Of a stretch of DNA of 64,000 nucleotides, positions 13,901 to 64,000 are shown piece by piece. The notes under the pieces were generated by a model that worked only from the letters and a program-made list of their open reading frames with translations, was not told the DNA's origin and searched no databases. Both the position numbers and the translations under genes were made by a program. This DNA comes from a candidate division WOR-3 bacterium (GTDB taxonomy: Bacteria; Hydrothermota; Tepidihabitantia; Tepidihabitantales; JAOUPE01): assembly GCA_039801565.1 (NCBI GenBank), contig JBDRUX010000001.1, positions 62,577 to 126,576 of the forward strand, read 5' to 3'. Position 1 is the first letter of the stretch; the number at the start of each line of letters is the position of its first letter.

Positions 13901-16254
13901 AGTCCTAATCGGCGCAAAACACTGGCTAATAGCGAAACATAGTTGGGTTCTCTTCTTAAGGTATTGTCGGAAAAGAGAATACCCAGTCCTTGAGTATAAA
14001 TGTCAATGGCATCGGCAAAGCGTCCCGTGATTTCCCGCAAGCGCCCAACAGCTTCAATTAACTCAATCCGTTCTCGGGCTGATACAAAGTTGGATGATAA
14101 GGCAAGCGCAGTTTCATAAAAACCAAGTGCCAATTCTGTCAGATTTAATCTTTTTGCTTTGGCTCCTGCCTCACGACAATAGTTAAAAGCTCGATCTTTT
14201 ATCCCAGCCTGGGTGTAGTGGTGAGCTAAATCAAAAAGGTAACGATCTTGTTCCCGCGGGTAAAGCAATTCGATTGCCAGGGCAACTGAGCGATGATAAT
14301 CCCGTCTTTCTTGCACACTAATTCCTTCGGTAATAATCGCTTCTAAGGTCTTGGAGGATAAGACAAAACCATCCGAATCGGGTAGGGGGCGCAGTAAATT
14401 AATCGCCCGTAACCTTGAAAAAATTGAATAGAGGAGATGTTCCTCATAACCTAAAACCGCACGAACAAAATCAACTGTGAAAGGAGTTCCAGTAATCGCT
14501 CCCACCTTTAAAACTTCTAATTCTTCTCGAGTGAGAGTACTCAGTCGTTCTTTAATCAGCGAGTAGACAGTGTCTGGTAATTTGAAATCGCCTGATGTCA
14601 ATCGGTTACGGTCTAATCTCCAACGACCGTATTCCAATTGAATGACCTTGCTGGCCAAAAGGGAATAAAGCGATTCAATCACAAATAGTGGATTACCGCC
14701 GGTACTGGCAAAAAGCCAGGTGCTCAACTCGGCGCTTGATGGATGAGGACCAAGAATTGCTTCCACTAAAAGTTGAGTCTCCTCTTGAGTTAGTGGACCA
14801 AGCGTAATGTGTTGAAAAAATTCTTTTCCCAAAAATTCTTTACTGAGTTCTAAAATTCTCCGCTCATTCAAACTGCTCACCACCACAAAAATTTTCTCCT
14901 TCTCAATGCTAAATCCTAAGAATCGGAGAAATTCGAGACTCATTGAATCAAATAATTCAAAATTATCAATCAGCAATAAAAGGCTGTGTTCAACCTTTGA
15001 TGAATTAGCTAACGCTTTGAGCTTTTTTATTATTTCTTCAAATAATTCATATTTTGTTGCCTCGTCTTCCTGCTTTGCTACAATGTTTTTGATATCTTTA
15101 CCATCATAAATTGATAAATTAGCTAAAATGTCTTCAATTAAAGATGGGGGGCGAGCACCTAATGCAGTATGAGCCGATTGTAAAATTGAAACACCTTCTA
15201 ATTTAGCGAGAAATTTAAATTCTTGTAAAAGCCTACTTTTACCCACGCCGCGTTCCCCGGTGATAAAAACTAATTGTCCATTTGAACCTTTGGCTGATTC
15301 TAACCGGTTTCTAAGAACGTTTAACTCATTTTCTCGGCCAATAAAACTCGAAGCTTGAAGAGAAAAAACACCTTCTCCGCTTCGCCGAATGCCAATAGTC
15401 GGTATTTTTTCCTTTAAAGATTCTGGTATTATATCACTTATCGTCTCGATAACTTCTAAGGCAGAAATTGGACGCCGAAAAGCATCCCGTGCGAGTAAAC
15501 GCATACAAAGGTTAGAAAACTTCTCGGGGATTTTGCTATCAATCTCACTTGGTGGCGCGAAGTTGGAATAATATTGAGTCCGTAGCCAATTCCGTAAATC
15601 TGTTTCGGTTGACGGTCCCCGACCGGTTAGGATTTCATAAATTACCATACCTAATGAGTATAGGTCAGCCCGACCATCCGCTTCGGTTCCCTTAAAAATT
15701 TCTGGTGCAATGTAACCAAGTGTTCCGCGTGGTATCTGATTGGAAGAAGAGAAATAATTAGCAAACCCAAAATCTAATAATTTGGCTCTTGCCTTGTTAC
15801 CGGTGTCAGAGTCGATCGCCGTATTGACCAGGATATTCTGAGGTTTCAAATCACAATGAATTAATCCCTGGCTGTGAATAGTATCTAAGGCATACAATAT
15901 CTCAATCAACACTAATAATAAATCTTCGGAATATCCTTTAAAAAATTTGTTAATCGGCGCACCTGGAAAATATTCCATTGTAAAGAATGGCTTTCTTTCA
16001 GTTATCCCAAAATCGAAAGGTGCGACAATATTCGGATGATTAAAGCGACTGAGCATGAAAAATTCTTGATTTAATTGATTCTCAATTTCTTTTGTCGCAG
16101 GTTCTCGGGAGATTTTTAGGGCTACGATGCGGGCACCAACCAAATCCTTTGTTTTGTAAACCTCAGTTATTTCACCACCACCCAGATAATCTAAAACCTG
16201 ATAACGGCCGGCAATTAAACTGCCGGTTTTAAAAGCACCCTCTTTTTGATTCAT
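10912..16254 (-). CDS. Ser/Thr kinase - STAND/AAA ATPase - TPR - GAF - sigma54 activator - Fis HTH fusion (1780 aa)
   Basis: Kinase motifs VALK, IHCDLKPQN, DFG, GTLGYIAPE; GERGVGKS; TPR array; GAF (RSLVCVPL...GTIYLD); GETGSGKG, ESELFGHCKGAFTGA, RFREDLYYRLN; GNVSRAAQML. Confidence 0.93.
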   Translation of the reverse strand: MNQKEGAFKTGSLIAGRYQVLDYLGGGEITEVYKTKDLVGARIVALKISREPATKEIENQLNQEFFMLSRFNHPNIVAPFDFGITERKPFFTMEYFPGAPINKFFKGYSEDLLLVLIEILYALDTIHSQGLIHCDLKPQNILVNTAIDSDTGNKARAKLLDFGFANYFSSSNQIPRGTLGYIAPEIFKGTEADGRADLYSLGMVIYEILTGRGPSTETDLRNWLRTQYYSNFAPPSEIDSKIPEKFSNLCMRLLARDAFRRPISALEVIETISDIIPESLKEKIPTIGIRRSGEGVFSLQASSFIGRENELNVLRNRLESAKGSNGQLVFITGERGVGKSRLLQEFKFLAKLEGVSILQSAHTALGARPPSLIEDILANLSIYDGKDIKNIVAKQEDEATKYELFEEIIKKLKALANSSKVEHSLLLLIDNFELFDSMSLEFLRFLGFSIEKEKIFVVVSSLNERRILELSKEFLGKEFFQHITLGPLTQEETQLLVEAILGPHPSSAELSTWLFASTGGNPLFVIESLYSLLASKVIQLEYGRWRLDRNRLTSGDFKLPDTVYSLIKERLSTLTREELEVLKVGAITGTPFTVDFVRAVLGYEEHLLYSIFSRLRAINLLRPLPDSDGFVLSSKTLEAIITEGISVQERRDYHRSVALAIELLYPREQDRYLFDLAHHYTQAGIKDRAFNYCREAGAKAKRLNLTELALGFYETALALSSNFVSARERIELIEAVGRLREITGRFADAIDIYTQGLGILFSDNTLRREPNYVSLLASVLRRLGLIYQKQGKVDESISYFKQALTTLKEKDAVGTITLWNDIGWSLTAKGDFKKAEEFYSLALKTIDLKNSESLVDLKARTLYGMSALAWYKGEIDLALEYANRGLALYEKPAPAREEVESNWISSKSNLRGKIGQFLATIYWQKGELNKAKETYSSILSSPLWELSDVYFRIRTIQGLGLVDFETGDWHQALEYFKEAKELCEKIGDSAGLGDTLCNLGIILEEMGDWQKATAYYQKDIEIRQNIRDDNGLVIGLINLANLFTKKGDFIDAEPLLKEAENLTKQNKNQQILGQIYLAWAKLHLMRDQVDSAIKSLALALNVQRIYAKGNKQKLIEMLLTAAGIRAAEADWSKCLTTCERAQNLLTLPAAEGQAYNANPRLYSLLLRWRGLAKHALGFTDDGKEELNRSIEILRSLGAKYEMAKSLYYQAQASLLLLTAPKTYNQGEPLPITYKPLSEQELTRVLDDLKEAETIFTSLGAKVEQERVRYMLNHISQLEATHKLKGRERGEYLKVFYELSELINLDLEKEDFADRLLDLIIDVTQAERGLLFLIQGDKLFPVAARNVDHTTLEDAHTISRTVIRQVKKRAEPIICADALSDPRFVNSNSVVLNKIRSLVCVPLRIDDKVIGTIYLDSRINPNVFVEEDKNLLISVANLLAATIDRSFAFKKMQEDFSALREDILTDAVTGYFLGRSKAIKDVYSIIEQIAPTDCTVLLLGETGSGKGVLARLIHANSNRRANKFVSINCGTLPETLFESELFGHCKGAFTGAIRDKEGLFEIAEHGTIFMDEIANTSLSIQAKLLEVLEDKIIRRVGETEPRRVDVRLICATNKNLEEEVKANRFREDLYYRLNVVTIQVPPLRERKSDIMLLAGYFLKRYAKQLNKPILGFEDNIPQILTEYPWPGNVRELQNVIERAVIMAQKRKISLENLGPKIVNFAKTMKIEKGQKKSLEREQVIEALKATQGNVSRAAQMLSTHRRQIQRLLRRYNINKEDFQSS

Positions 16255-39292: not shown

Positions 39293-39537
39293 TAAAATGA
39301 ATGCACAATTAACGACCGCAAGCAATAAATTTTCCTTGACAAAGTCCTAAACCGAGTTATGATTTTATGTAATTCTAATGGTTGCGAAGCAATGGACTTG
39401 GGGTTTGGCAGCGATTTTACCGAAGGCGATAAAATTTTAGGAATTGCTCTTTTCCTTTATTTTTGTGAACAGACTGATTCGCCACAAACCTAATGGCGAA
39501 TCGGTTAAAACTTGAAAACAAAAAGAAGGAGGAACAA

Positions 39538-42500
39538 ATGGATTTCAGCAGTAATAAACAAAAGAGGTTAGGCAAGAAGACCTGCTTTTCGATTTTTACC
39601 TATATGCTAATCCTATTAGCACTCGTAAGCACCGGACTCCAAGCTGGTTCAATTACCGAAAAGTTCAATTTTGCAAAAAGTGAAATAGGATTCAAGAAGA
39701 TTGGCGAATTCGATTTGCCGGTAATACGGGATTGGCTTTATACCGCGGAGGTTGGTAAGCCAATGATTCCTTATCTAATTTTTCAGGTTTTAGTTCCACC
39801 AACGGCAGAAGTTACTGAGGTAAAGGTCTTGTCATTTAAGAAAGTTGAAGTTGAAGGCAAATATTATATTCATCCCAGTCAACCACCAGTGCCAATTTCT
39901 TACAAAGGCGAGATTCCTTTTGTGCCACCTGATGAAGCAACTTATAATTCAACTGAAGAGTATCCAGCCCGGTTGGTTGATTTTGTGCCGACTGGTTCAA
40001 AAAGTGGCTACCGGATTGCTGGGGTTGAGGTTTATCCTTTACATTATGTGCCTAAGGAACGGAGGCTTTTCTTATACACCGAACTGGTCTTAGAAATTAT
40101 TTATGAAGAAGGTAAGGTTGCACCGCAACTTTTAACCGAATCCCAGAAGAGACTTTTTGGTCAAGAAGTGCGAAGTTTAATAATCAACAAAAAGGATTTA
40201 AAACGTTTTGAACCACCGACGAAACTGATTGACCAAGGTAACGAGATTGATTACTTGATTATAACCAGTAGCACCTTGGAATCGAATTTCCAGCCCTTAG
40301 CCGAATGGAAGACTAAAAAAGGCTGGAACACCAAAATTCGAAATACTAACTGGATAAATACTAATTATTCCGGCCGGGACTTACAAGAAAAAATCCGAAA
40401 TTACATTCGAACCTGTTTCGCCGATTCAGGTTTGAAGTTTGTGCTTCTGGCAGGTGATAATTCGATAATCCCAAAACGAGGAACATATGCCTGGGTTTCA
40501 CCTCATATTGACAGTTTCATACCTTGCGATTTGTATTTTGCTGATTTAGATTGGAGTTGGGATGGTAACCAAAACAATGTTTTTGGCGATACTTGGACAA
40601 TAGGCGGTAGGCGAGACACGGTTGACCTTTATTATGATGTTTACATCGGAAGGGCATCAGTAGAAACAGCGAGCGAAATTTCCAATTTCTTGAATAAATT
40701 ATTTACCTATGAGAAGAATCCAAATACTGATTACATCAAAAGAATCCTTTTACCTTGGGGGGTACTATGGTCAGGTTATGATAGCAAACAATCGCAAGAT
40801 TCGATAGCGAAATATACACCGGCTGGTTGGACTGACCGCTATATCAATGATACAAGAGTGGTTAATGAAGTTAGGGATTCGTTAAATAATGGTTTTCAAT
40901 TCTGCCATTTGGTTGGGCATGGCAATGATGTTGGGGTTTATTGGACAAGCACCGGACCAGCAATGTATCATACCGGCCATCCCGGAACACAGACCAATGT
41001 TAATAAGTATCTTATTGCTAATTCGATTGCTTGCTATCCAGGTAATTTTGAATACTCGGATTGTCTTGCTGAATCTATGGTGAATGTCCAGAATTGTGCG
41101 GTGGCGGTGATTATGAATTCAAGATATGGTTGGGGAACGCCGCCTAACATTGGTCCTTCAGAACTTCTTGATTTTCAATTTTATTATTTCTTTTTTAATT
41201 ATGATACCTTCCGAATCGGTATCACCCATGCCGAATCGAAAGAATTTTATCGGAACTCAGCTCTTAACCAACAGGTTTGGCGTTGGTGTTATTACGAGTT
41301 AAATCTCTTTGGTTGTCCGGAGATGCCGATGTGGCAGGATGTTCCTTTGACAATGACTCTTGCCTTTGACGATACAATAAACACTGGTAGCCAAACTTTT
41401 ACTGTAACCGTCACTGACCCGAGTGATGCGCCGGTTGTGAATGCTTTAGTTTGTCTTTGGAAAGGAAATGAAGTTTATGTGCGGGGGTATACTAATGCCA
41501 GCGGTATCGTTAACTTTACAATAAATCCTACCACTGTTGGTCAAATGTTTGTTACCGTCTCGGCTTTTAATCATTACCCGAAAGAGGATACTTGTTACAT
41601 TATTGAGCAGAACGAGGATGTCGGCGTTACGACTATTATTACACCAACCGGCAATATTGACTCGAGTGCGGTCTCCTCAATTATACCTCAAGCAACAATT
41701 CATAACTATAGCATTTCCGATACGCTAAGTTTCCCAGTAATTTTCTATATCTATGACAGTGGCTGGAATTTAGTATGGGCGGATACTCAGCAGATATTAG
41801 ACCTTGGTCCTAACCGCGATACGACAATAAATTTTGCTGCTTTAGGCATTGAATTGTCACGTGGCATTTATAACACTAAATGCACAACCGCCCTGGTTGG
41901 TGATATTAACCCATCCAATGACTGGCAGGATAGTTCATTTACGGTTATTGTCCACGATGCTGGGATGATTGATATTGTGACGCCAACCGGACTTATTAAG
42001 AAAAATAGTGTTATCACACCTCAAGTAACAGTGCGGAATTTTGGCAGTGTTAGAGATTCTTTTGATGTGATATTAACGATTGGAGCGACTTATGTTGATA
42101 CCGTCTTCACAACCCTTGACCCTAACAACCAAACAACACTTAGTTTTAATCCTTGGACCGCAACTGCAATTGGGACATTTCAAGTTCGCTGCACCACCGC
42201 TTTAATTGGCGATTTAGTCACAGTCAATGATACTTTATCGGATTCGGTAATAGTCTACGATGATGATGTCGGTGTGGTGGCAATTTTGGAGCCAGTTGGT
42301 CCGACCGATTCGACTGCGACGATTGTGCCCCGCTGTAGTGTTTACAATTATGGTTCATCACCAGCTACTTTTTCGGTTACTTTTAGAATCTTAGAAGCGG
42401 GTTATAGCAATACGCAAACCGTTACCGCATTAGCCCCCAATACCGGCACAGCGATTCCTTTTGCGCCCTGGTTGGTCGGGCCAAGGGGCAATTATACGAC

Positions 42501-45500
42501 AAGATGTTCAACCGGAATGAGTCCCGACACCAATGCATTGAACGACACTTTATCCGGTTCGTTTACGATTCGGGTGCATGATGTTGGTGTTACGGAAATT
42601 CTTGCCCCAATTGGTGTCGTTGCCTTAAATAGTTCAATTACACCCCAAGCAGTAGTTAGAAATTTTGGTACCGAGACCGATACCTTTGATGTTTCGCTTG
42701 TTGTTCTAACATCGCCGTCGAGTTCTTGGACGGAAACTGGAATAATTTTAGATTCTGGTGCGGTTGATACGGTCAGTTTTGCCCCGAACTGGACCGCAAG
42801 TCCTTTAGGAACATTTGAAGTCCGTTGTTCGACATCTTTAACTAATGATTTAGTCGTTGCTAATAATCTGAAGATTGATACGGTCATTGTTACGGATTTT
42901 GATGTTGGCGTAGTAGCGATTCTTGCTCCGGTAGACACATTAGATTCGACTGCTACCCTTGTTCCACAATGTAGTGTTTATAATTATGGTTCATCAGCGG
43001 TAACTTTCCCGGTGACTTTCCGAATCTTAGAAGCGGGTTATACCGCTACCGAGACAGTAATTGGCCTGCCACCAAATACTGGGACAACGGTTTCCTTTGC
43101 GCCTTGGACAGTAGGACCGCGCGGTTCTTATACAACCCGATGTTCAACCGAACTTATGCCAGATTTTAATCCAGTAAACGACACTTTATCTGGTTCATTT
43201 GTGATTCGAGTGCACGATGTTGGGGTGACTGAGATACTAGCACCAGTGGATACCGTGATTCTTAATCACGCTTATAATCCGAAAGCGGTTGTCACTAACT
43301 TTGGGTCGGTGCGTGAGACTTTTAATGTCTCATTGGTTATTCTTCCGACAATACCACCACCAAATTCGTTTACGCAATCCGTCACATTACCGGCAGGTGA
43401 AACCGATACGGTAGACTTTAATTTAGCACTCTGGGTGGCAACACCACTTGGAACTCATCAGGTCCGCTGTTCTACGGATTTGGCTAACGATTTAGTCCCC
43501 AATAACAATCTAATAATTGATTCGGTGACGGTTTCCGATGCGGATGTTGGAGTGACGGCAATCGTCTTTCCTACCGGCAATGTTGATTCGACAGCAACAA
43601 TAACACCACTGGTTAGTTTTTATAACTATGGTACTAATCCAGCGTCATTCCCAGCAATTCTTACTTTCACCGGGCCAGCTAATTATGTTGATACTCAAAT
43701 TGTCAATTTGGCCGGTAATAGTGGCTTGACGATACCGTTTGACCCTTGGACTGTTGGACCGCGTGGCACTTATCAGGTGAAATGCACTACTGCCCTTGCC
43801 TTTGACACCGCAGCAGTAAATGATACGATGTCAGGTTTCTTTTCCATTATTGTTCATGATGTCGCGACAATTGAAATTATTGCGCCGAAGGGAGTGATGC
43901 CGTTGAATCGAAGTGTCACTGCCCAAGCGGTAGTACGAAATAATGGAACCCAAGCTGAGAGTGTTGATGTTTCGATGATTGTTTTGACACCAGTGCCGAC
44001 TACTTGGACGGTGACGATAGATAATTTAGGGGCTGGTGTGACCGATACGGTTGATTTTGGGTTATGGACGGCAACACCACTTGGCACCCATCAGGTTCGT
44101 TGTTCGACCGATTTGGCTAATGATTTAGTTCCAAGTAATAATCTAATAATTGATTCGGTGACGGTTTCCGATGCGGATGTTGGAGTGACCGAAATCTTGT
44201 ATCCAACTGGAACAATTGATTCAACGGTATCATTGATTCCAGAAGCGGTTGTCTTCAATTATGGTTCGCAAGCTATATCCTTCCCAGTTATTATGAGAAT
44301 TTTACCACCAGCAACTTATGTTAATATTCAGTGGGTGAATAATCTTCCACCCAACACCGCTGATACAGTTCAATTTGCGCCTTGGACAATCGGACCGCGG
44401 GGAACTTATACTGTTCGATGTTCTACCGCTTTAAATATTGATACCAGTGCGGTAAACGACACAGTCTCACGACAATTTGAAATCATTGTTCACGATGTTG
44501 GAACTACTGAAATTCTTGCCCCCAAGGGTATTGTTCCTTTAGGTAGTCCGGTTACACCTCGTGCAGTGGTGAGAAATTTTGGGACTGAGACCGATACCTT
44601 TGATGTCTCGCTTACCGTTCTGACCGTGCCACCAAGTTCTTGGACCCAAACCGGGATAGTCTTGAACCCAGGTGAAGTTGATACCGTCAGTTTCGCACCA
44701 AACTGGACAGCAGGTCCGGTTGGAATTTTCCAGGTTCGCTGCTCAACTTCGATGGTGCAGGATTCGGTATTGGCTAATAATCTTCAAATTGACACGGTTC
44801 AGGTGGTCGCATTTGATGTTGGTGTAAATGCCATTGTTGCACCAGTTGGAACCATTGATTCTTCTACTACTCCAACGGTTGTGCCTCAGGCAAGCATAAC
44901 GAATTATGCAACTATACCGGTTAGTTTCCCCGCAATTTTCCGTATCACCCGTGGTGCTTATATTTGGGCTGATACCCAGACTATTAATCTAAATGCTGGA
45001 CAAACTACTACGGTTAGTTTTGACCCTTGGACAGTTGGGCAAACCGGTATTTACACAACACGCTGCACAACTGGTTTGATTGGTGATGTCGACCCAACTA
45101 ATAATCACACTGACAGTACTTTCCGAGTTGTAACCCCGGGTGGTGATGTGGGAGTGACCGCATTGATTCTTAACCCATCTGGACCGAATGTTGATTCCGG
45201 CACAACCATTCAAATTTCTGCCCGTGTTAAAAACTTCGGTACCGAGGTCTCCACTTTCCAGGTGAAGACAAAGATTGGTACTTTTTATCTCGACAGCCTA
45301 CCGACACCACTTACCTTAAATCCTGGCGATTCCGCAACGGTAAGTTTTAGCAATTGGGTTGCAGTCCGGCGTGGCCAACACATTGTGCGATGTAGCACCG
45401 AATTAGATGGCGACATTGACCATTCTAATGACCGTCAGACAAGAAATATTACAGTCTTGGTTCGCGATGTGCGAACCTATTCAATTTTGGCACCAACCGG

Positions 45501-47994
45501 CAATATTGATTCAACCGCTAATCCAATCACACCACAGGCAATAGTTGAAAATTCAGGCAATGTTTTAGTAGATAGCTTCCCGGTAATATTCACTATAACT
45601 GGACCAGCCACCTGGACGAATACTCAGATGGTTAGGAATTTGCCGGCTGGACAACAGCGGACAGTAGACTTTGCACCTTGGACAATTGGTCCGGTTGGTG
45701 CTTATACAACGGCTTGTAGCACCGCTTATGCCCTTGATATGAACCCGTCTAATGACCGGCGTACCTCACAATTCTGGATTCAAAGGGTTGATATCAGCGT
45801 TGACTCCATTGTCTCACCATTAGGTGTGGTAGATTCCAATTCGGTTGTGCCAGTCCAAGCCTGGGTATCAAACCAAGGCACCTCAAACAAAACCTTCTTG
45901 GCTATTTTCCGAATCGGCACCTTTTATACTGATACTGTAATCATAACCCTTAATTCACTTGCCGATTCGTTAGTCACCTTTGACACTTGGCGTATCTCAC
46001 AACCAAAAGGGATTTATCCAGTCCAATGCACGACAGTGATTGCCAATGATGCCAATCCCAATAATAACCAAGATACAGGTTCGGTGCAAGTGCGCGTCAA
46101 AGATGTCGCAATAGATTCAATCATTTCGCCAAGCCCAGTTATTCCACCCGGCATAATGAATCCAATTGCCCGAGTCATCAATAATGGCAGTGATTCACTT
46201 GATTTTTATGTCTATTTCCGAATTCGTAGTGCCAGTGGTACGGTTTATTTCGATTCCGCTTATGTTCCACTCTTGGCACCGGATTCGAGTTACGACGCCA
46301 CTTTTCCGGCTTGGGATGCAGTGCCTGGTATTTATATTGCTCGTTGTTCCTTAGCAATAGCTGGTGATATGGTTCGAAGCAATGACACCTTATCAATTAC
46401 TTTTAATGTTGCGACTCGGGATGTGGGTGTCTCAAGAATTGTCTTTCCAGGAAGACGGACTTTATTAGGACCAATTCAACCGCGCGTTGTTGTGAAAAAC
46501 TATTCCAGTACTATCGAATCATTCTGGACTTGGTTCAGCATCACTGATACAGCGAGTGGTAGTAATGTCTATTTTGATTCGGCATTTTGTGCCGACTTAG
46601 GTCCTTGGATGGAACAAATTCTTGACTTCCCAATCTGGACCGCTAACCTTGGCGGTTATCGGCTTGTTTCGTATACGGCTTTAGTTGGTGATGATAGCAC
46701 AGCTAATGATACAGTTACTGCCTACTGTCAGGTTGATTCAATTATTTTGCCAAAATGGGCACAAAAAATGGATATGCCACTTGGACCAAGAGGCAGACCA
46801 GTGAAACGGGGTGGTTGTATTACCTTTGGTGGTAATAACCTCTTATTCGCCCTCAAAGGTGCCGGTACCAACGAATTCTACTCCTACAATATTACCTCGG
46901 ACACTTGGGTAACCTTGGAAACGATACCCTATGCCTTAAATAAGAAAAAGAAAGTAAAGGGTGGCTCTGCAATTTGTTATGATGGCAATAACACAATATT
47001 TGCCCTCAAGGGCAATAACACTCTTGAATTCTGGGCTTATTCAATTCCTTACTCTACCTGGATCCAATTAACTGATGTCCCAGCTGGGAGCAAACGAGCT
47101 AAAGGCGGCTCGGGTCTTGCTTTCGTCCCAGGTCCAACTGGTGGTTTAATCTATTGTCTGAAAGGTAGTAAGACCTTTGAGTTTTATGCCTATTCCATTG
47201 CCACTAATACTTGGATTTTCCTGCGCAATGCGCCAGCCGGCTATCGGGGCAAACCATTTGACAAAGGTAGTTGTCTCACCTATGACCCAAGTACCAATCA
47301 AATCTTTGCCTTAAAAGGCTATGAAAACGAATTCTTCGCCTATGATATCATTGCTGATTCTTGGACAATTAAAGCATCGCTACCAATATATGGCTTTGCT
47401 GGACAAAAACGAGCCAAAGAAGGTGCAGCACTGGTTGCCGATGGTTCTGGTCTTATCTATGCCTTCAAAGGCAATAATTCACAAGAATTCTGGGTCTATC
47501 ACATTGCCGGTGACTGGTGGGAACAGGTTGACCCGATTCCGATTGGACCAAACAATCGCAAAGTCAACCAAGGTGGCGCTCTCGCCTATGTTCCGAGCAT
47601 TGGCAAAATTTATGCTCTAAAAGGAAATCGAACTCGAGAACTTTGGGCTTATGACCCCAATGCATTATCACTTTTGAACTCGTTGAACGATTTGAACTCT
47701 TCATCGGGCACTATGGAAACAGAAACCCGTCCGCTTGAGTTAATTAACTTCAAAGTAACCCCGAACCCGAACAAAGGAAATTTCATATTAAAATACAATG
47801 TAGATAAGATTCGTCCGATTACAGTTAAACTTTACAATGCCTTGGGTGAACGAGTCTTTGAACAAACTAAGCAAGTTACGAATAAATCAGGAACGATTAC
47901 GATTGACACTGAAAAACTGGCGATCGGCATCTACATTATGCGGATAGAGTTCGATGGCGTAAGGTATAGCGAAAAGGTTCTAATTCAGAGGTAA
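39538..47994 (+). CDS. Gingipain-like C25 cysteine peptidase with propeptide, ~16 Ig-like/CARDB repeats, Kelch-like propeller and T9SS CTD
   Basis: SD AGGAGG before ATG 39538; IPCDLYFADLD, GHGN (His) and SIACYPG (Cys) catalytic motifs, LFGCP; DVGV..I..P repeats; KGxNTxEF repeats; PNP...GIYI...KVLIQR. Confidence 0.92.
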   Translation: MDFSSNKQKRLGKKTCFSIFTYMLILLALVSTGLQAGSITEKFNFAKSEIGFKKIGEFDLPVIRDWLYTAEVGKPMIPYLIFQVLVPPTAEVTEVKVLSFKKVEVEGKYYIHPSQPPVPISYKGEIPFVPPDEATYNSTEEYPARLVDFVPTGSKSGYRIAGVEVYPLHYVPKERRLFLYTELVLEIIYEEGKVAPQLLTESQKRLFGQEVRSLIINKKDLKRFEPPTKLIDQGNEIDYLIITSSTLESNFQPLAEWKTKKGWNTKIRNTNWINTNYSGRDLQEKIRNYIRTCFADSGLKFVLLAGDNSIIPKRGTYAWVSPHIDSFIPCDLYFADLDWSWDGNQNNVFGDTWTIGGRRDTVDLYYDVYIGRASVETASEISNFLNKLFTYEKNPNTDYIKRILLPWGVLWSGYDSKQSQDSIAKYTPAGWTDRYINDTRVVNEVRDSLNNGFQFCHLVGHGNDVGVYWTSTGPAMYHTGHPGTQTNVNKYLIANSIACYPGNFEYSDCLAESMVNVQNCAVAVIMNSRYGWGTPPNIGPSELLDFQFYYFFFNYDTFRIGITHAESKEFYRNSALNQQVWRWCYYELNLFGCPEMPMWQDVPLTMTLAFDDTINTGSQTFTVTVTDPSDAPVVNALVCLWKGNEVYVRGYTNASGIVNFTINPTTVGQMFVTVSAFNHYPKEDTCYIIEQNEDVGVTTIITPTGNIDSSAVSSIIPQATIHNYSISDTLSFPVIFYIYDSGWNLVWADTQQILDLGPNRDTTINFAALGIELSRGIYNTKCTTALVGDINPSNDWQDSSFTVIVHDAGMIDIVTPTGLIKKNSVITPQVTVRNFGSVRDSFDVILTIGATYVDTVFTTLDPNNQTTLSFNPWTATAIGTFQVRCTTALIGDLVTVNDTLSDSVIVYDDDVGVVAILEPVGPTDSTATIVPRCSVYNYGSSPATFSVTFRILEAGYSNTQTVTALAPNTGTAIPFAPWLVGPRGNYTTRCSTGMSPDTNALNDTLSGSFTIRVHDVGVTEILAPIGVVALNSSITPQAVVRNFGTETDTFDVSLVVLTSPSSSWTETGIILDSGAVDTVSFAPNWTASPLGTFEVRCSTSLTNDLVVANNLKIDTVIVTDFDVGVVAILAPVDTLDSTATLVPQCSVYNYGSSAVTFPVTFRILEAGYTATETVIGLPPNTGTTVSFAPWTVGPRGSYTTRCSTELMPDFNPVNDTLSGSFVIRVHDVGVTEILAPVDTVILNHAYNPKAVVTNFGSVRETFNVSLVILPTIPPPNSFTQSVTLPAGETDTVDFNLALWVATPLGTHQVRCSTDLANDLVPNNNLIIDSVTVSDADVGVTAIVFPTGNVDSTATITPLVSFYNYGTNPASFPAILTFTGPANYVDTQIVNLAGNSGLTIPFDPWTVGPRGTYQVKCTTALAFDTAAVNDTMSGFFSIIVHDVATIEIIAPKGVMPLNRSVTAQAVVRNNGTQAESVDVSMIVLTPVPTTWTVTIDNLGAGVTDTVDFGLWTATPLGTHQVRCSTDLANDLVPSNNLIIDSVTVSDADVGVTEILYPTGTIDSTVSLIPEAVVFNYGSQAISFPVIMRILPPATYVNIQWVNNLPPNTADTVQFAPWTIGPRGTYTVRCSTALNIDTSAVNDTVSRQFEIIVHDVGTTEILAPKGIVPLGSPVTPRAVVRNFGTETDTFDVSLTVLTVPPSSWTQTGIVLNPGEVDTVSFAPNWTAGPVGIFQVRCSTSMVQDSVLANNLQIDTVQVVAFDVGVNAIVAPVGTIDSSTTPTVVPQASITNYATIPVSFPAIFRITRGAYIWADTQTINLNAGQTTTVSFDPWTVGQTGIYTTRCTTGLIGDVDPTNNHTDSTFRVVTPGGDVGVTALILNPSGPNVDSGTTIQISARVKNFGTEVSTFQVKTKIGTFYLDSLPTPLTLNPGDSATVSFSNWVAVRRGQHIVRCSTELDGDIDHSNDRQTRNITVLVRDVRTYSILAPTGNIDSTANPITPQAIVENSGNVLVDSFPVIFTITGPATWTNTQMVRNLPAGQQRTVDFAPWTIGPVGAYTTACSTAYALDMNPSNDRRTSQFWIQRVDISVDSIVSPLGVVDSNSVVPVQAWVSNQGTSNKTFLAIFRIGTFYTDTVIITLNSLADSLVTFDTWRISQPKGIYPVQCTTVIANDANPNNNQDTGSVQVRVKDVAIDSIISPSPVIPPGIMNPIARVINNGSDSLDFYVYFRIRSASGTVYFDSAYVPLLAPDSSYDATFPAWDAVPGIYIARCSLAIAGDMVRSNDTLSITFNVATRDVGVSRIVFPGRRTLLGPIQPRVVVKNYSSTIESFWTWFSITDTASGSNVYFDSAFCADLGPWMEQILDFPIWTANLGGYRLVSYTALVGDDSTANDTVTAYCQVDSIILPKWAQKMDMPLGPRGRPVKRGGCITFGGNNLLFALKGAGTNEFYSYNITSDTWVTLETIPYALNKKKKVKGGSAICYDGNNTIFALKGNNTLEFWAYSIPYSTWIQLTDVPAGSKRAKGGSGLAFVPGPTGGLIYCLKGSKTFEFYAYSIATNTWIFLRNAPAGYRGKPFDKGSCLTYDPSTNQIFALKGYENEFFAYDIIADSWTIKASLPIYGFAGQKRAKEGAALVADGSGLIYAFKGNNSQEFWVYHIAGDWWEQVDPIPIGPNNRKVNQGGALAYVPSIGKIYALKGNRTRELWAYDPNALSLLNSLNDLNSSSGTMETETRPLELINFKVTPNPNKGNFILKYNVDKIRPITVKLYNALGERVFEQTKQVTNKSGTITIDTEKLAIGIYIMRIEFDGVRYSEKVLIQR

Positions 47995-57323: not shown

Positions 57324-57986
57324 TTAAGCAATTAGAACCGCAATGATTCCAACCAGATAGATTCCATCAAATACCCCAGCCCCACCGATTGACATTACAC
57401 CGTGACCAACTTTGGTAAGTTTGGATAGATTGAGTAAATCCGCACCAATCAAAACACCCAAGACGCCAGAAATATAGGCTACTGCCGGTGCGTTTTCCCG
57501 GGCTAAAATTAAAGCCAAGATCGCTGAAAGGATTGGCGGTATGAATGCCGGCATTGCAATACCAATCCCAGGAACCGGTCGGCTTAAGATTTTAGATACA
57601 ACAGTCATTATTATCGTGCCAATCAGAACCGCAAAGAACGGCGCTCGAAATAAAAGATAGAGCGATAATAAGACTGGTAGAATACAGCCACCCAAATTCA
57701 CTGCGATTACCTGTTTTTCTAATATCTTGGGTTTTATCCCAAACCAAAATTGATAAAATTCCGGAATCGGTATCTCAGTTGGCACACTGTAACTCTTCTC
57801 GTGGATTGGTATATTAATGGCACTGCCAATAAGTGAAAATAAAAAGAACATAAATCCAGTGGTTGGTGTCATTCCCAATTTCTGAAAGGCAATGCTAATA
57901 ACACCAATCTGGAATAACACAAAAAGGGCAGGGAGTAAGAGAATGAGAAGGATAAAAATTAAGAAAGAGAAAGGTAAGAAAAACAT
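57324..57986 (-). CDS. DUF1614-type membrane protein
   Basis: GSAINIP, IAVNLGGCILP, GVLIGADLLNL, SIGGAGVFDGI; TGATG coupling to the upstream gene. Confidence 0.85.
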   Translation of the reverse strand: MFFLPFSFLIFILLILLLPALFVLFQIGVISIAFQKLGMTPTTGFMFFLFSLIGSAINIPIHEKSYSVPTEIPIPEFYQFWFGIKPKILEKQVIAVNLGGCILPVLLSLYLLFRAPFFAVLIGTIIMTVVSKILSRPVPGIGIAMPAFIPPILSAILALILARENAPAVAYISGVLGVLIGADLLNLSKLTKVGHGVMSIGGAGVFDGIYLVGIIAVLIA

Positions 57987-58609
57987 CAGTGAATTATTCC
58001 TAACCAATCGCGCAACAAAAATTGGATTCGGCCAATGAAGAGGGAAATCCGTGCCATCACCGAATAACCGAATGAAGCCCCAAACCCAAGCATAATAAAG
58101 ACAATACCAATATAAGAAAGTGGTTTTAGTATTCCTTTCCGTTCCCGTGAAAAGAAGAAATAAGAGACAGTTGCCACAACCCCAAGTAGGATTAATATTG
58201 CCCAGATTCCTTGTTGCCAGTTAATGAATGAAGCACGGGTGACAACCGTTGCTCTGGTCTGTTCAATGATTCCGGCATCAATGCCCCGAGGAATATAGGC
58301 GCCTGACGAGTAACCCATAACGAGCGCTATCGGAATTCGGACCAGCCAAGAAATTCTTGGGATAAACCGGGTGAAATAGAGGGCACCGATGAAAGCAACT
58401 CCTATTAGCCACAGTTTTTGACCGTGTGACACCGGATTGATTAAAGCCGGCACTAAGATTCGATGCCACATAAAGGTGATACTGTAGCCATTAGCAACGC
58501 CGACGAAAAGATGTTCGCCAAAACGATAAAATGGATTCTCTTTATATAAAAAGGAGAATATTGCTAAGGTTAAAATCGCACTAATCCAAATCCAAGGTTC
58601 ACCACTCAT
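57986..58609 (-). CDS. Conserved hypothetical membrane protein
   Basis: SFLYKENPFYRFGEHLFVG; multiple TMs; coupled to neighbours. Confidence 0.8.
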   Translation of the reverse strand: MSGEPWIWISAILTLAIFSFLYKENPFYRFGEHLFVGVANGYSITFMWHRILVPALINPVSHGQKLWLIGVAFIGALYFTRFIPRISWLVRIPIALVMGYSSGAYIPRGIDAGIIEQTRATVVTRASFINWQQGIWAILILLGVVATVSYFFFSRERKGILKPLSYIGIVFIMLGFGASFGYSVMARISLFIGRIQFLLRDWLGIIH

Positions 58610-59472
58610 TTTTTTCTCCTTCTTAAGACAAAGAAACCAATATTACCAATGATAATGAAAGCTATTATAGTAAAATGGGCTGAAGTTTGGGCTGCCATTG
58701 CTTCAGTCGCCCGACGCCGGCCGGTTATCCCAAGTCTGGTTTGCACTAATTCTTCATATTCCGCACCACCTTTCATACCGGAAAGTAATCCAGTGGCTTG
58801 ACCGGAATTGAGATAAGGATACATATCCGCGGCCTGCACTGCAGTTGAGGCGATACCAACTTTAACGCCAAATGAGGTTTGGGCGTAAGTGATATACCAG
58901 AGCGGTGTTGCCGAAGCCGAGACCGAGACTATAATCCCAACATTATTGTAGTTCTTGATTTTTTGCATCATTGGTAAGGTTTCAGTTTTATTACCATAAT
59001 AATCAACCGAAAAGACCTTACTGATTCTTTCGCCCATTCCTAAGATTACTGTGAGCGCTGGTGTCTGCCAACCCCAGAATACATAATCTCGACCATAAAT
59101 TATACTGTCGGCTTGGGTAGTTGCCCGGCGGTTAAATTCATTGGCGACCTGAGTCAAGGCATTTTCGGCTAAACCTAAACCCAATACTCCTAAGCACAAA
59201 ACCCCGACTTTAACTCTTCGGGCAAAGGCATGGCGGAGTAAGGCAATTGTCATTGGTTGGAGTTCTGGTTCTGTATCCGGGGTATAGTCAACCGAAATGA
59301 CTAATGCCTTATCTTGTGGGATTGAGTCAATATGATTATAAAGGTTTTCCACTGGTGGCATCGCCCTCGGATGAATCAGAAATGGCCGCAGAAAGGGGAT
59401 AATGACAACTAAGGCTAAAATAAGATAGATTATTCTGCGGTCAATCTTCATCAGTTTTTCAAAGAATTTCAT
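58606..59472 (-). CDS. Conserved hypothetical membrane-anchored protein
   Basis: DRRIIYL, YGRDYV, GLLSGMKGGAEYE; ATGA overlap. Confidence 0.8.
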   Translation of the reverse strand: MKFFEKLMKIDRRIIYLILALVVIIPFLRPFLIHPRAMPPVENLYNHIDSIPQDKALVISVDYTPDTEPELQPMTIALLRHAFARRVKVGVLCLGVLGLGLAENALTQVANEFNRRATTQADSIIYGRDYVFWGWQTPALTVILGMGERISKVFSVDYYGNKTETLPMMQKIKNYNNVGIIVSVSASATPLWYITYAQTSFGVKVGIASTAVQAADMYPYLNSGQATGLLSGMKGGAEYEELVQTRLGITGRRRATEAMAAQTSAHFTIIAFIIIGNIGFFVLRRRKK

Positions 59473-60146
59473 TGGGTTCCTCCTAACCAACCGCGTTCAA
59501 TGCCTAAGATTATCTTGAGCGAAGTCGCCATTGAACCCAAGGCGATACCAAATCCCAAACCACGTTTGGCTGCAGTATTGGGCACGGTCAAAATCCATTC
59601 GGAAAAAAACGAAAGTTTTGGAAATACCCTTGAGACCAATGGAACAGCCGCCAGCATCACAACAAAAGCCGAGAAGAGAAGGATGGTTGCCTCGATATTC
59701 CGAGCGCGGAATGCCCGATAAGCCGCCGAAGTCATAAAGAAGGCAAGCAATGAAAACATCGTTGCACCAAGTGGAACCATTATGTTAGTGTAAAGAGTTT
59801 GAATATCGAAATGGAAGGTATACTTGGTAAAAGGCACCAGAAATCGGGTTGGCAGTATGCCATTCGCCTCAATACCGCCAAAAAGTCCAATGATAGCAGT
59901 TATCACCAACGATATTAATGTCACATAACTATATTGCCAGTTCTCTCTTTTTCTTCGAATTTTTTCATAATGGTGCCGGATGATACTGCCAACACCTAAG
60001 ACTAATGAGAAGGCAACAATGATTCGCAAAACCGAATTACGAAACTCATTGTCAGCATCTTGGATTATTCGGTGCGGTACCAAAAAGGGAATAGCACCAA
60101 GCACACCGAAGATGAAGACGATTGCTAAGGGTATTCTTCTTTTCAT
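59469..60146 (-). CDS. Conserved hypothetical membrane protein
   Basis: ATMFSLLAFFMTSAAYRAFRARN, RGLGFG, ILGIER; SD AAGGAGG. Confidence 0.8.
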   Translation of the reverse strand: MKRRIPLAIVFIFGVLGAIPFLVPHRIIQDADNEFRNSVLRIIVAFSLVLGVGSIIRHHYEKIRRKRENWQYSYVTLISLVITAIIGLFGGIEANGILPTRFLVPFTKYTFHFDIQTLYTNIMVPLGATMFSLLAFFMTSAAYRAFRARNIEATILLFSAFVVMLAAVPLVSRVFPKLSFFSEWILTVPNTAAKRGLGFGIALGSMATSLKIILGIERGWLGGTQ

Positions 60147-60220
60147 TGACACTCCTCCTTTTTATTTAGAGATAAGCTTAGACTTGATGTTAATCAATAA
60201 TTTTTCTTTCACCTTTGATT

Positions 60221-61312
60221 TCAGAATAAATTTAAGACCGGTAGATTTAATAGTAAGGCGACCAATGTGGCGAAAAGTAGGACTCCAACAATTATCGCCT
60301 TGCCGAAATCCTGTCCTTTTAATGCACCTAAGAGCAATGGTTCACGCGAAAGATAAGCTGACGCTGCATACAATTCTTCACCAATCAAAGTATAATCACA
60401 GGCAGTAATGAAAAAAGGTAATTGCATCACGGCATCAGTGCCAGCAATCTGAATGGCACCAGTTGCAGCACCGGTCTCAGCCATAATCAAGGATTCTGCC
60501 CAGAAATAGCCCATAAAGAAATTGGTAGCTGGGTTTTCTCGAGTCATTATACCATCCACTGCTGCCGCAAATGCAAATTGACTGTCCGTGACAAAATAGA
60601 CACTATCCGGATTGAAGGCATCAGGTCGGCCAACTTGGGTATAGGCTTCTTTTACCACTTCGCGGGCAACTGTATAAACGATAGGGTCGCGGTTCGGAAC
60701 AATCAGTTTTGTCTCATACTGAGCAGTCTTCTTCGCGACCTCGGCTAAAATATTAAGACCGGCGATGGTTGCAACATCATCCATACTAGAAAGACCGGGT
60801 ACATAAAGAATTGGTTTACCCATTTCCGTGGCTCGACCAACCGCTTCTTCAACCGCTGACAAACCGGCAATTCTCCGGACAAAAAGGTTTGCTCCCTTTT
60901 TGGCTTTTGTAATGAACCAGAGGATTAAAAAGATAAAGATTCCAGCAAAGACCAAAACATTGATTCGTTCGGTATTAAACCATTGGGCAGAACTTTGAGC
61001 AAAATTCGATGGTTCGGAGTAAGACCTAATCGTATCTTTGACAGCAGCGACTTGATATTGATAGCGCAACTTGTCTTCTGCCTCATCGTCAATATAACAA
61101 TTCCTGCTTCTACCGATGAAGCCAATTGATTTAGATTCTTTTTCTCCTTCGGTTAATCGCAAAATTTCGTAACCGTCAATGATTGAATCATCTGGTGATA
61201 GTTGCCAAGCTATTCGTATTACTCCACCAGCATCATTGGGATTATCCCAAGTCCGCACCGCACTCGGCGGTGCAATCGCTATCAAAAAAGTAACTATCAC
61301 TGATGTTATCAT
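60221..61312 (-). CDS. FN3-like + DUF6754-like membrane protein
   Basis: Signal peptide, DNPNDAGG..W, TM, VRRIAGLSAVEEAVGRATEMG, LIGEELYAASAYL. Confidence 0.8.
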   Translation of the reverse strand: MITSVIVTFLIAIAPPSAVRTWDNPNDAGGVIRIAWQLSPDDSIIDGYEILRLTEGEKESKSIGFIGRSRNCYIDDEAEDKLRYQYQVAAVKDTIRSYSEPSNFAQSSAQWFNTERINVLVFAGIFIFLILWFITKAKKGANLFVRRIAGLSAVEEAVGRATEMGKPILYVPGLSSMDDVATIAGLNILAEVAKKTAQYETKLIVPNRDPIVYTVAREVVKEAYTQVGRPDAFNPDSVYFVTDSQFAFAAAVDGIMTRENPATNFFMGYFWAESLIMAETGAATGAIQIAGTDAVMQLPFFITACDYTLIGEELYAASAYLSREPLLLGALKGQDFGKAIIVGVLLFATLVALLLNLPVLNLF

Positions 61313-61438: not shown

Positions 61439-61720
61439 ATGGATTGGAGAATATTCATTACGGTATTTGGCACCATTTTTTTAGCCGAACTTGGCGATAA
61501 AACCCAACTTGCGATATTCTCTTTCGCTTGTACCAGTAAATATCCGCTAACGGTATTTTTGGGGGCGTCATTTGCCTTGCTTTTGACCAGTATGTTAGCC
61601 GTGTTGGTCGGCACCGGCTTACAGAGAGTCATTCCGGTCAAAATTCTTCACATTATTGCTGCTATTGCCTTCATCATAATCGGCATTATATTGTTGATTA
61701 AAACCTTAAGGACTAACTAA
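61439..61720 (+). CDS. TMEM165/GDT1 (UPF0016) family half-size transporter
   Basis: FLAELGDKTQL motif, 3 TMs. Confidence 0.9.
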   Translation: MDWRIFITVFGTIFLAELGDKTQLAIFSFACTSKYPLTVFLGASFALLLTSMLAVLVGTGLQRVIPVKILHIIAAIAFIIIGIILLIKTLRTN

Positions 61721-61883
61721 AAAGAAAAACAAGCAATTCGTTTTATTTTTATAATTAAAAAGTTCGCCGGTTCGAGACATTTTCCATTGACAAGTATCAA
61801 CTTTTAAATTACACTTTATATGCGTCCTTTCCAAAATAGAGAGTGTGACGCGATTTAGGCACAAGTAAACCAAGGAGGCTTAA

Positions 61884-63089
61884 ATGAAAACATTCTTCCT
61901 TCTCGCCCTGGTCGGGCTTTTAGCTTATGCCCAAGCACCACGGTTTATCGGACCAACCTATATCCTGGATAGCGGCGTTCCGATTGATGTTGGTTATTAT
62001 GGTTCCCCTTTCATCTATGACTGGGATGGCGATGGTAAAAAGGATTTGATTGTCGGACAATTTACTGGTGGTTATATCCGCTTCTATCGAAACATTGGTA
62101 CTGACCCTGAACCCCTGTTCAGTGGCTATGAGTTCCTTTATGCCTCCGGTTCCCAAATTACCCTGCCATCGGGCTGATGCGTTGGTTCAAGTCCACAGGT
62201 CGTGGACTGGAATTCCGACGGACTGAGAGATTTAGTCTCTGGCGACCGTAACGGTTATTTCAATGTCTTTATTGAAAGTGGTAGCGGTCTTATCGCTTAT
62301 TATCGAATGCTTTTGATGAATGGTGAAACGTTGGATGTTGGTAACAATTCTCAGCCAACCGTAGCGGATTGGAACCGGGATGGCAAAAAAGACCTTATCT
62401 TAGGTGAAGAAAATGGTTATGTTCGGCTTTATCTAAATCAGGCAACCGATACCTGGCCAATGTTTCAAGACTATACTTACATCCAATCCGCCGGCAGTCC
62501 TATCTACTTATACCGAGTAAATCCTTATGTGGTTGATTTAGACCAGGATGGTAAGCGGGATTTGGTTTGTGGTGCTAATGATGGCTATGTCCATTTCTTC
62601 CGCAATGTTGGTTCGGATACCAATCCTACTTTTGCCGGAGAAGAATACTTGCAGACGACCACTGGTACACTAATTCAACCATCGGGTAATTATCCTTATG
62701 GTTCGCGGTGTGGTTTTGGGGATTGGAATAATGATGGCGCACTCGATTTTCTAATCAGCGGTTACGATGGCTATGTTGAACTATATCTTGGCGAAGGCGT
62801 AGCAGTAGAAGAGAAATCAACGGTATCAGTAAAACCCAATGATTTTACAATCTTTCCTAATCCAGCTAATAGTTCGGTTAACTTTGGTTTTAATTTAAAC
62901 TATAATACCAATGGCAGTCTTCGCATCTATGATGTATCGGGTAAGGAAATTGTCTGCCTGAAATCAGGAAGATTGACTAAAGGTAGTCACACTTTACTAT
63001 GGCAACCCAAGGTCTCGGCTGGAGTTTATCTCTGTCAACTTAAGCTCGAAAATCAGACCTTAATGAGGAAGTTAGTGATAACTGAGTAA
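61884..63089 (+). CDS. Secreted FG-GAP repeat protein with T9SS CTD, probable selenoprotein (Sec at UGA 62175-62177), 401 aa
   Basis: The two ORFs are in frame and joined as ...LPSG-U-CVGSSPQVVDWNSDG; SECIS-like hairpin follows the UGA. Confidence 0.75.
62181..62219 (+). promoter_or_regulatory. Bacterial SECIS-like stem-loop
   Basis: AGUCCAC-AGGUC-GUGGACU, extended by UUC/GAA and GUUGG/CCGAC; loop 19 nt after the UGA. Confidence 0.65.
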
Positions 63090-63151
63090 AATTGCCGATT
63101 TTTTCCAATGGATTGACTTTCAATTATTAATAAATTATAATGGATTAGATT

Positions 63152-63233
63152 GCCGGGGTGGTGGAATTGGCAGACACATACGTTTGAGGGGCGTAGACCG
63201 AAAGGTGTGCGGGTTCAACTCCCGCCCCCGGCA
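63152..63233 (+). tRNA. tRNA-Leu(GAG)
   Basis: GCCGGGG...GGCAGAC, anticodon arm TACGT-TTGAGGG-GCGTA, long variable arm, GGTTCAACTCC. Confidence 0.92.
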
Positions 63234-63292
63234 TTTTTTAGTTATTAGCGATTAGTAAATAGTTGTTAGTCTAACAACCAAAAGCTAATTTA

Positions 63293-64000
63293 ATGCCCCG
63301 AGCAATTATTATTGTTCTCGACGGCGTTGGGGTTGGTGAATTGCCCGATGCCAGCCAATACAATGATAAAGGTTCTAATAGCTTAGCCAACCTTGCCCAA
63401 AAAATTGGCGGTCTTTTGCTCCCCAATCTTGAATCATTGGGCTTAGGAAATATTATTGAGATAAAAGGGATAAAAAGACAAGAAAAACCTAAGGGTTCAT
63501 TTGGCAAAATGGCAGAAAAATCACCAGGCAAAGATTCTACTTCCGGACATTGGGAAATCGCCGGCGTAATTTTGAATCAATGTTTCCCAATCTATCCCAA
63601 AGGGTTTCCAAAAGAATTAATTGAAAAGTTTGAAAAGGCAATTGGTCGAAAAGTCTTGGGCAATATCCCAGCCTCAGGAACCGAAATAATTGAAAGATTA
63701 GGCGAAGAGCATATGAAAACCGGTTATCCAATTGTTTATACCTCGGCTGACAGTGTCTTTCAAATTGCTGCTCACGAGGCTGTGATTCCTGTGCCAAAAT
63801 TGTATGAGATGTGTCAAATTGCCCGAACCTTATTACAAGGTGAACATTGTGTTGGTCGGGTGATTGCCCGACCGTTCATTGGTTCGCCGGGTAAATTTTG
63901 CCGTACCAAAAACCGCAAAGACTTTTCCGTAGAACCACCAATACCAACCCTATTAGATATTGCCAAGGAGAATGGCTATCCAGTAATTGTTATCGGTAAG
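63293..64000 (+). CDS. deoB: Phosphopentomutase (5' part, runs off the window)
   Basis: [60 protein letters not shown]. Confidence 0.95.

Follow-up and report, generated by a model that had tools for sequence, protein, structure and literature searches.

A 64,000-nucleotide stretch of DNA from a candidate division WOR-3 bacterium (the window) carries, near its 3' end, a reading frame that is interrupted by a single TGA codon. Is this codon a stop between two open reading frames (ORFs), or does it specify selenocysteine (Sec, U) within one continuous protein? The frame runs on the forward strand from an ATG at 61884 to a TAA at 63087–63089. Its sole internal in-frame stop is the TGA at 62175–62177 (codon 98), which is followed by TGC at 62178–62180 (Cys99). 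Translation with table 11 splits the frame into ORFs at 61884–62177 (97 residues) and 62202–63089 (295 residues). The initial annotation held that these two ORFs are one frame broken only by a TGA before a Cys codon, and our translation agrees; the product around the codon reads ...ITLPSG-U-C-VGSSPQVVDWNSDG... (locally ...LPSG-U-C-VGSSPQVVDWN...). We conclude, with a probability of about 0.88, that 61884–63089 is one gene for a secreted selenoprotein in which the internal UGA is read as Sec. Homologues match the product at full length across the TGA, giving a gene of 401 codons, one of them the Sec codon for residue 98, followed by the TAA. A Shine-Dalgarno-like AAGGAGG, read from the sequence, is located at 61872–61878 on the same strand, 5 nt upstream of the ATG.

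Sequencing error had to be considered for the TGA, and independent assemblies hold the same codon. A 165-nt RNA-library contig of a separate study matches 62065–62229 with 0 differences, and a contig from a second sample spans 61983–62589 with 3 differences, none of them listed at the TGA. In a third study, a strain of ~92% identity spans the whole gene, and 78 of its difference rows are outside the base-level comparison. Contigs from RNA libraries cover 11 of 30 bins, which bears on the TGA and not on expression level or habitat. The gene was found in sequencing runs labelled as hot-spring metagenomes.

The codon is conserved throughout the order. A search of 61 same-order genomes with the read-through protein gave 46 matches in 30 genomes; exactly one TGA is present in 44 of the 46, and the remaining two are fragments that leave codon 98 uncovered. 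We parsed 43 genes, leaving out a contig-end fragment (L059), and the TGA occupies the same column in all of them, with G-U-C in 41 and S-U-C in two, so that the U-C pair is found in 43 of 43. These homologues share 36–68% identity with the window protein and are conserved on both sides of the TGA. No frameshifts occur among them, and the TGA is always in frame with the sequence after it. Cys99 and Gly101 are nearly invariant in the alignment, and the Cys99 codon alternates between TGC (22 genes) and TGT (7 genes) in group A (29 genes); therefore, the codons after the UGA are translated. The source names of the database homologues are again candidate division WOR-3. That standard annotation would split the gene was foreseen, and 117 of the 120 best database matches cover no more than 81% of the query, being mostly tails of ~295 residues. 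The family is therefore routinely annotated in a truncated form.

A hairpin lies downstream of the UGA within the coding region, and we regard it as a candidate selenocysteine insertion sequence (SECIS). Its core on the forward strand (62190–62208) consists of a 7-bp stem, AGUCCAC/GUGGACU, and an apical loop, AGGUC (62197–62201). The minimum-free-energy (MFE) fold has no bulge in this stem and extends the element to a SECIS-like hairpin with lower, middle, and upper helices (62180–62220, forward strand), of which the lower helix is variable. The stem and the loop are as first described; the 19 nt originally given as the distance from the TGA to the stem is the distance to the loop, and the stem begins 12 nt after the TGA. 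In the bacterial SECIS (bSECIS) model, the apical loop has 3–9 nt, the upper stem has 4–16 bp, a G is present in the first two loop positions, the loop lies 16–37 nt from the UGA, and the MFE is ≤−7.5 kcal/mol (PMC13188914, legend of Fig. 2). The window element has a 5-nt loop with G at position 2, 7 bp, a spacing of 19 nt, and −9.6 kcal/mol; all of these values agree with the model, and the hairpin satisfies all four published constraints. The strict gapless bSECIS test is passed by 63 of 82 distinct TGA forms. Within the gene, the 28-nt segment with the hairpin is the most stable among 386 in-frame segments, and the corresponding segment is within the top 5% in 36 of the 43 genes.

The strongest evidence for a SECIS is that synonymous codons are frozen in the stem while the loop codon is free. 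In the closest group (29 genes), Pro+6 and Val+9 of the stem are always encoded by CCA and GTG (29 of 29), whereas all 31 other conserved four-fold codon columns vary (mean entropy 1.51 bits) and the loop codon Val+8 uses all four codons. Pairing across these 29 sequences holds in 86.6% of cells, compared with 21–49% when the partner strand is slid. A second subgroup encodes AVCDW instead of QVVDW, and its 7-bp hairpin (CAGUCGC/GCGACUG) differs and begins one nucleotide later; this hairpin is 100% paired and includes one G-C to A-U swap. A joint RNAalifold prediction on all 43 elements recovered no more than 2 pairs, since the codon alignment places the hairpin of one subgroup 1 nt out of register. 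The hairpin was then analysed per subgroup and by covariance-model alignment. Over 80 elements aligned in this way, the apical helix is 99.7% paired, with compensatory changes in three of four pairs and 34 double-change cells, compared with 10.2 ± 2.4 in shuffles (0 of 500 shuffles reached 34). Folding at the same place averages −10.1 kcal/mol in TGA forms and −6.1 kcal/mol in TGA-free homologues, with a Mann-Whitney p of 7e-8 that is overstated in that relatives are not independent. The threshold for covariance-model searches was E ≤0.006; a version with E ≤1 was discarded for weak matches from other blades. The model of UGA plus hairpin also matches two or three times within single loci from other phyla (L076 at 412–471, 1807–1866, and 3186–3245; L113 at 60–119 and 1753–1812), and these repeats suggest tandem paralogues of the Sec propeller gene.

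The hairpin had been called similar to that of E. coli fdhF, and this holds only loosely, for the loop pentamer and the spacing. We confirmed from the K-12 sequence that the apex of the fdhF SECIS contains AGGUC (UGA ... GCAGGUCUGC), as in the window. The loop begins 18 nt after the UGA in fdhF and 19 nt after it here, and both genes have an in-frame UGA with a hairpin directly downstream in the coding region. The upper stem of fdhF is presumably bulged, unlike the perfect 7 bp of the window element, and the window protein is unrelated to formate dehydrogenase. In E. coli, the UGA and the SECIS hairpin are read by SelB, and the present genome has selA, selB, selD, and tRNA-Sec. The proposed decoding would be the ordinary bacterial mechanism, as in fdhF: the hairpin at 62190–62208 would recruit SelB and Sec-tRNA(Sec) during translation, and the UGA at 62175–62177 would thereby be read as Sec instead of as a stop.

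The Sec machinery was sought in the genome of the window (2.31 Mb, 94% complete), as the initial annotation had proposed, and all four components were found above curated cut-offs: selB with 359 bits, selA with 580, selD with 320, and tRNA-Sec with 75. Across the order, selA is present in 56 of 61 genomes and in 27 of the 30 that carry the propeller gene. In two assemblies (G041 and G060), selA was not found, and selB and tRNA-Sec are present. Outside the order, selA was found in all five distant carriers of the TGA form tested and in three of five TGA-free carriers. The selD gene of the window's genome (contig C1: 7661–8560), which lies upstream of the window on the same contig, has one in-frame TGA itself. 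It therefore encodes a Sec-containing selenophosphate synthetase and is a second selenoprotein gene of this genome.

Homologues are not confined to the order. When one genome per species was scanned, 79 homologous loci in many phyla emerged, and 41 of them have an in-frame TGA at or adjoining the same column (two of the 41 coincide with the contigs of L044 and L066). The conservation of the TGA that was looked for in homologues is thus found both within and beyond the order. By record title, the TGA carriers include members of Fermentibacterota, Lentisphaerota, Planctomycetota (including a Kuenenia metagenome-assembled genome), Gemmatimonadota, Fibrobacterota, KSB1, Verrucomicrobiota, Nitrospirota, and Armatimonadota. 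The local motif in the 41 loci is x-U-C in 36 (G-U-C in 30), and the remainder are G-U-G (two loci), G-U-L, Y-U-M, and C-U-G. Among the 38 TGA-free loci are a C-C form (L136), many G-C-[LM]-G-C forms (C-x-x-C), and forms without Cys. Cys-Cys homologues, which were among the forms to be expected, are thus represented by L136 (TGC TGC) and by a protein database entry (P0030); selA was not found in the genome that holds L136. One full-length database homologue (P0019, 411 residues) is recorded with Trp at the Sec column (AGWCQG), and the likeliest explanation is that its gene caller translated TGA as Trp.

We placed 115 propeller domains in a quick maximum-likelihood tree, excluding L074, L080, and loci whose best match does not span residues 60–290. 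The Sec state changes five times on this tree, at least three of the changes being forced by well-supported branches, compared with a mean of 30 for shuffled labels. A clade with the C-x-x-C motif (support 100) includes two Sec members, L087 and L108. In these members of an otherwise Cys-only G-C-[LM]-G-C clade, the TGA replaces the first Cys and not the preceding residue; therefore, the Sec position has shifted by one residue within the family. The changes on the tree and the Sec members of the C-x-x-C clade together imply that Sec and Cys have been exchanged more than once at this two-residue site.

The protein appears to be built for export. As proposed from the DNA alone, a signal-peptide-like N-terminus (MKTFFLLALVGLLAYAQA, residues 1–18, ending in AQA; 61884–61937) is found before the UGA. 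It was judged by eye; an AlphaFold2 model has a helix at residues 2–14 with a low predicted local distance difference test (pLDDT) score, and homologues have similar hydrophobic N-termini. Approximately residues 20–305 (61941–62798) form a predicted five-bladed beta-propeller of the FG-GAP/VCBS type, supported by PF13517, the model, and structural matches. FG-GAP_3 (PF13517) reaches 89.9 bits (cut-off 26.9), with five matching stretches distributed over both sides of the UGA, so the repeats do run across it; PF01839 (FG-GAP) scores 29.2 bits (cut-off 22.1). The AlphaFold2 model, for which 44 sequences were used, averages 92 in pLDDT and has five blade-initiating strands (40–45, 103–107, 157–161, 213–217, and 275–279), and a C-terminal beta-sandwich at 322–399. 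The top matches in a structure search by a method other than Foldseek are five-bladed propellers (Z 18.5, root-mean-square deviation 3.0 Å over 235 residues, 7–12% identity), and these are taken to confirm the blade number only. Five-bladed glycoside hydrolases were set aside as a match of topology at 7–12% identity that is not read as homology or function. Foldseek against the PDB returned generic seven-bladed FG-GAP propellers (integrin-alpha, CRTAC1, and BBSome) with a TM-score of ~0.36. A seven-bladed propeller of the integrin-alpha type was rejected, because the model has five A-strands and its TM-score to integrins is at that level.

In translation, each blade has a calcium-type DxDxDGxxD motif, DWDGDGKKD in blade 1 (62019–62045) and others at 62205–62231, 62367–62393, 62535–62561, and 62721–62747, all on the forward strand. 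Residues D46/D50/D54, D112/D116, D162/D166/D170, D222/D226, and D284/D288 are invariant in the 44 sequences. In VCBS/integrin-type propellers, the DxDxDG motif is carried by the AB loop (PMC8023676). The motif at this place and the FG-GAP_3 repeats are shared with tachylectin-2, which has five blades, with the lectin PVL, and with integrin alpha, which differs from the window protein in having seven blades.

Residues 323–399 (62850–63080, forward strand) are a type A sorting domain of the type IX secretion system (T9SS), with 41 bits for PF18962 (cut-off 27) and 44 bits for TIGR04183 (cut-off 23). The domain was expected in the second ORF and is located there. The genome also has the PorU sortase (452.8 bits, cut-off 420) and SprA_N (85.5 bits; an SprA-like translocon), which supports the proposal of a T9SS cargo, and 37 other ORFs of the genome have similar C-terminal tails. 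Like other type A cargo, the protein thus combines a signal peptide, judged by eye, with a sorting domain above curated cut-offs. From these domains and the machinery found, we propose an export route in which the signal peptide would take the 401-residue product across the inner membrane by way of the Sec translocon. The product would take the form of a five-bladed propeller held stable by five DxDxDG calcium sites, and its sorting domain would hand it to the T9SS, where PorU would remove the domain and fix the protein at the surface or release it. The route would not be universal. The FG-GAP propeller is kept in all 34 out-of-order Sec forms scanned, and a T9SS tail scores above the cut-off in seven. 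No tail was seen in the scanned Sec forms titled Planctomycetota or Verrucomicrobiota, whose Sec propellers differ in this from T9SS type A cargo. Therefore, the conserved unit is the secreted propeller with its Sec site and not the export route.

The functional centre is presumably the vicinal Sec98-Cys99 pair in the motif G-U-C-x-G. By blade topology, G-U-C would lie in the D-to-A loop that joins blade 1 to strand A of blade 2, and it would thus correspond to the loop that forms the ligand pocket in the five-bladed tachylectin-2 and in PVL, where strand D leads to the next strand A (PMC8023676). On the same topology, residues 98–99 are predicted to look into a pocket bordered by R122, N155/S156, R211, and R274/C275. 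Sec sites are usually redox sites (PMC13188914, section 7), and the site alternates among U-C, C-U, C-C, and C-x-x-C; a selenenylsulfide/selenol-thiol redox centre is therefore favoured. The pair would alternate between the selenol/thiol form and a selenenylsulfide ring of eight members, and its substrate would be an oxidant, disulfide, or polysulfide outside the cell. Judged from the sequences, we consider redox cycling its most likely role, at a little under even odds. That the family as a whole, across phyla, consists of surface or secreted five-bladed propellers that carry out catalysis outside the cell with a ring of vicinal Sec and Cys is a tentative proposal, wrong rather more often than right on our estimate.

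Several other explanations of the TGA were weighed. If it were a genuine stop, produced by recent pseudogenisation or an assembly error, the locus would be a former FG-GAP gene in two dead pieces. Gene callers do stop there, as the truncated database matches show, and yet the same column holds TGA in all 43 parsed same-order homologues and in 41 of the 79 loci of other phyla, the protein is conserved on both sides without frameshifts, and independent assemblies agree on the codon; the probability of this explanation is close to nil. Alternatively, the locus could encode two proteins, a secreted peptide of 97 residues that ends at the UGA and a protein of 295 residues that restarts at the GTG at 62202. 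Such a GTG does lie 24 nt after the TGA and opens the downstream ORF. However, the restarted product would be a T9SS sorting-domain protein without a signal peptide, and the first 97 residues would amount to one blade, which in the model cannot close a propeller. The codons between TGA and GTG are conserved as protein, with Cys99 and Gly101 nearly invariant and Cys encoded by synonymous TGC and TGT, and a restart would leave these two conserved codons unread. The Cys-form homologues are continuous, and the TGA and the second ORF always share one frame, so that two separate proteins are very improbable. We think it equally far-fetched that the UGA is read as Trp, Gly, or Cys, by genome-wide recoding or by leaky near-cognate read-through. 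The Trp recorded in P0019 would fit this explanation but probably comes from the code used by its gene caller. The earlier argument that TGA is a normal stop here stands: 6 of the 26 ORFs of at least 200 residues in the window end in TGA, and the carriers span many standard-code phyla; genome-wide recoding is therefore excluded. In addition, a structured element under selection lies at SECIS distance, the Sec machinery is present in every well-assembled carrier tested, and TGA-free homologues align Cys, not Trp, at the site. Each of the refuting conditions named in the initial annotation was checked, and every outcome favours Sec.

A further alternative accepts Sec and concerns its function only: the Sec-Cys pair may bind a soft metal or metalloid (Cu, Hg, As, Fe-S, etc.) with high affinity and not serve as a redox catalyst. 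The families with adjacent Sec and Cys in Table 1 of PMC13188914 are mostly metal-related, namely the CopZ-family 2Fe-2S proteins (GxUC, CU), HgcA, the MerB-like SaoL, and MbdU, and Cys-form homologues exist for them as for the window protein. The C-x-x-C of the TGA-free clade is known as a motif for metal binding too, no reductant that would regenerate a redox centre is evident for a surface protein, and the gene occurs in the runs labelled as hot-spring metagenomes. On the other side, C-x-x-C and the exchange of U and C are as typical of thiol oxidoreductases (PMC13188914, section 7), and no metal-handling gene is among the conserved neighbours at 107 loci. We regard a metal site as less likely than the redox role and as a serious competitor to it.

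Some observations weigh against a Sec-decoded gene with a Sec-Cys redox centre. One genome that carries the gene (G031, 76% complete) yielded no selA, selB, or clear tRNA-Sec. Nineteen of the 82 distinct TGA forms fail the strict bSECIS test, 16 because their perfect stems are too weak alone and three for want of a G at the start of the loop. Within the closest 29 genes, the stem core is invariant and covariation is consequently not significant; the 80-element alignment was fitted to a covariance model, which favours structure. An Rfam scan of 61800–63300 (E ≤10) returned a tRNA-Leu and two chance matches, with no SECIS family. The RNA-library contig across the site proves neither transcription nor read-through. 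Some homologues have neither Cys nor Sec at the site (P0089 with E-T, and 12 rows marked as lacking Cys in the tree), and the propeller can therefore exist without a Sec-Cys centre. The spatial position of Sec98 is deduced from the blade topology of the model. When the flanking ORFs of the 107 loci were clustered, no widely conserved neighbour emerged that would suggest a substrate, and the largest family comprises 8 loci.

A few features surround the gene. A tRNA-Leu(GAG) lies directly downstream (63151–63234), and the very deep pile-up of metagenome contigs on it arises because it is conserved across organisms. The upstream neighbour (61439–61720) is a hydrophobic ORF of 93 residues (MDWRIFITVFGTIFLAELGDKTQ...) that is not conserved beside the homologues and by eye looks like a small membrane protein. 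Further upstream on the minus strand, 57324–61312 holds five tightly packed or overlapping ORFs, and the four at 57986–61312 end in TGA; therefore, TGA is an ordinary stop in this organism. Two very long ORFs are also present in the window, at 39493–47994 (plus strand, 2833 residues) and 10912–16254 (minus strand, 1780 residues).

We compared the family with known selenoproteins. No FG-GAP, VCBS, propeller, or T9SS selenoprotein appears in Table 1 of a 2026 catalogue of 119 prokaryotic families or subfamilies (PMC13188914), and the BSepDB family tables, which may bear on novelty, are outside this comparison. Unlike the window protein, none of these 119 is a propeller or T9SS cargo. Term searches of PMC13326102 and PMC12013277 (main text) likewise gave no such selenoprotein. 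Full-text literature searches gave nothing relevant that links selenoproteins or selenocysteine with FG-GAP, VCBS, WOR-3, or type IX secretion; in these searches, no selenocysteine was reported for VCBS/FG-GAP propellers (tachylectin-2, PVL, or integrin alpha), and no selenoprotein among T9SS cargo. A scan of the protein (P0001) against NCBIfam matched no selenoprotein model, including that of the hypothetical protein DG with the motif GUxG (NF049953); it gave only matches to the T9SS tail and a weak one to FusH, a fusidic-acid esterase (residues 46–305, E 0.0019, 16.9 bits against a cut-off of 999 bits). Thus, as far as Table 1 of PMC13188914 extends, this is a widespread selenoprotein family absent from the 2026 catalogue. 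The database matches used here bear on other studies as well: with 117 of the best 120 truncated, selenoproteome counts and functional predictions are therefore biased in these lineages.

The glycine-flanked vicinal pair resembles the C-terminal Gly-Cys-Sec-Gly of mammalian thioredoxin reductase, which can form an eight-membered selenenylsulfide ring. The window protein differs in that its pair is reversed (Sec-Cys) and internal, it has no flavoprotein domain, and it is predicted to be extracellular. Known bacterial selenoproteins are mostly cytoplasmic and are thioredoxin-fold or metal-cofactor enzymes. Sec on a calcium-stabilised, exported propeller would be a new scaffold, in a family that is spread over many uncultured phyla. 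The compact natural SECIS within a conserved coding motif is a usable test case, and the natural swaps among U-C, C-U, C-C, and C-x-x-C provide material on why Sec is preferred over Cys. If the catalytic role proposed above is true, the protein may serve in the extracellular reduction of disulfides, polysulfide, peroxide, or metalloids. It would then be a first in two respects, as a selenoenzyme with a beta-propeller scaffold and as a selenoprotein that leaves the cell by type IX secretion, and the family would be a major uncounted reason for the Sec machinery in WOR-3, Fermentibacterota, Planctomycetota, and others.

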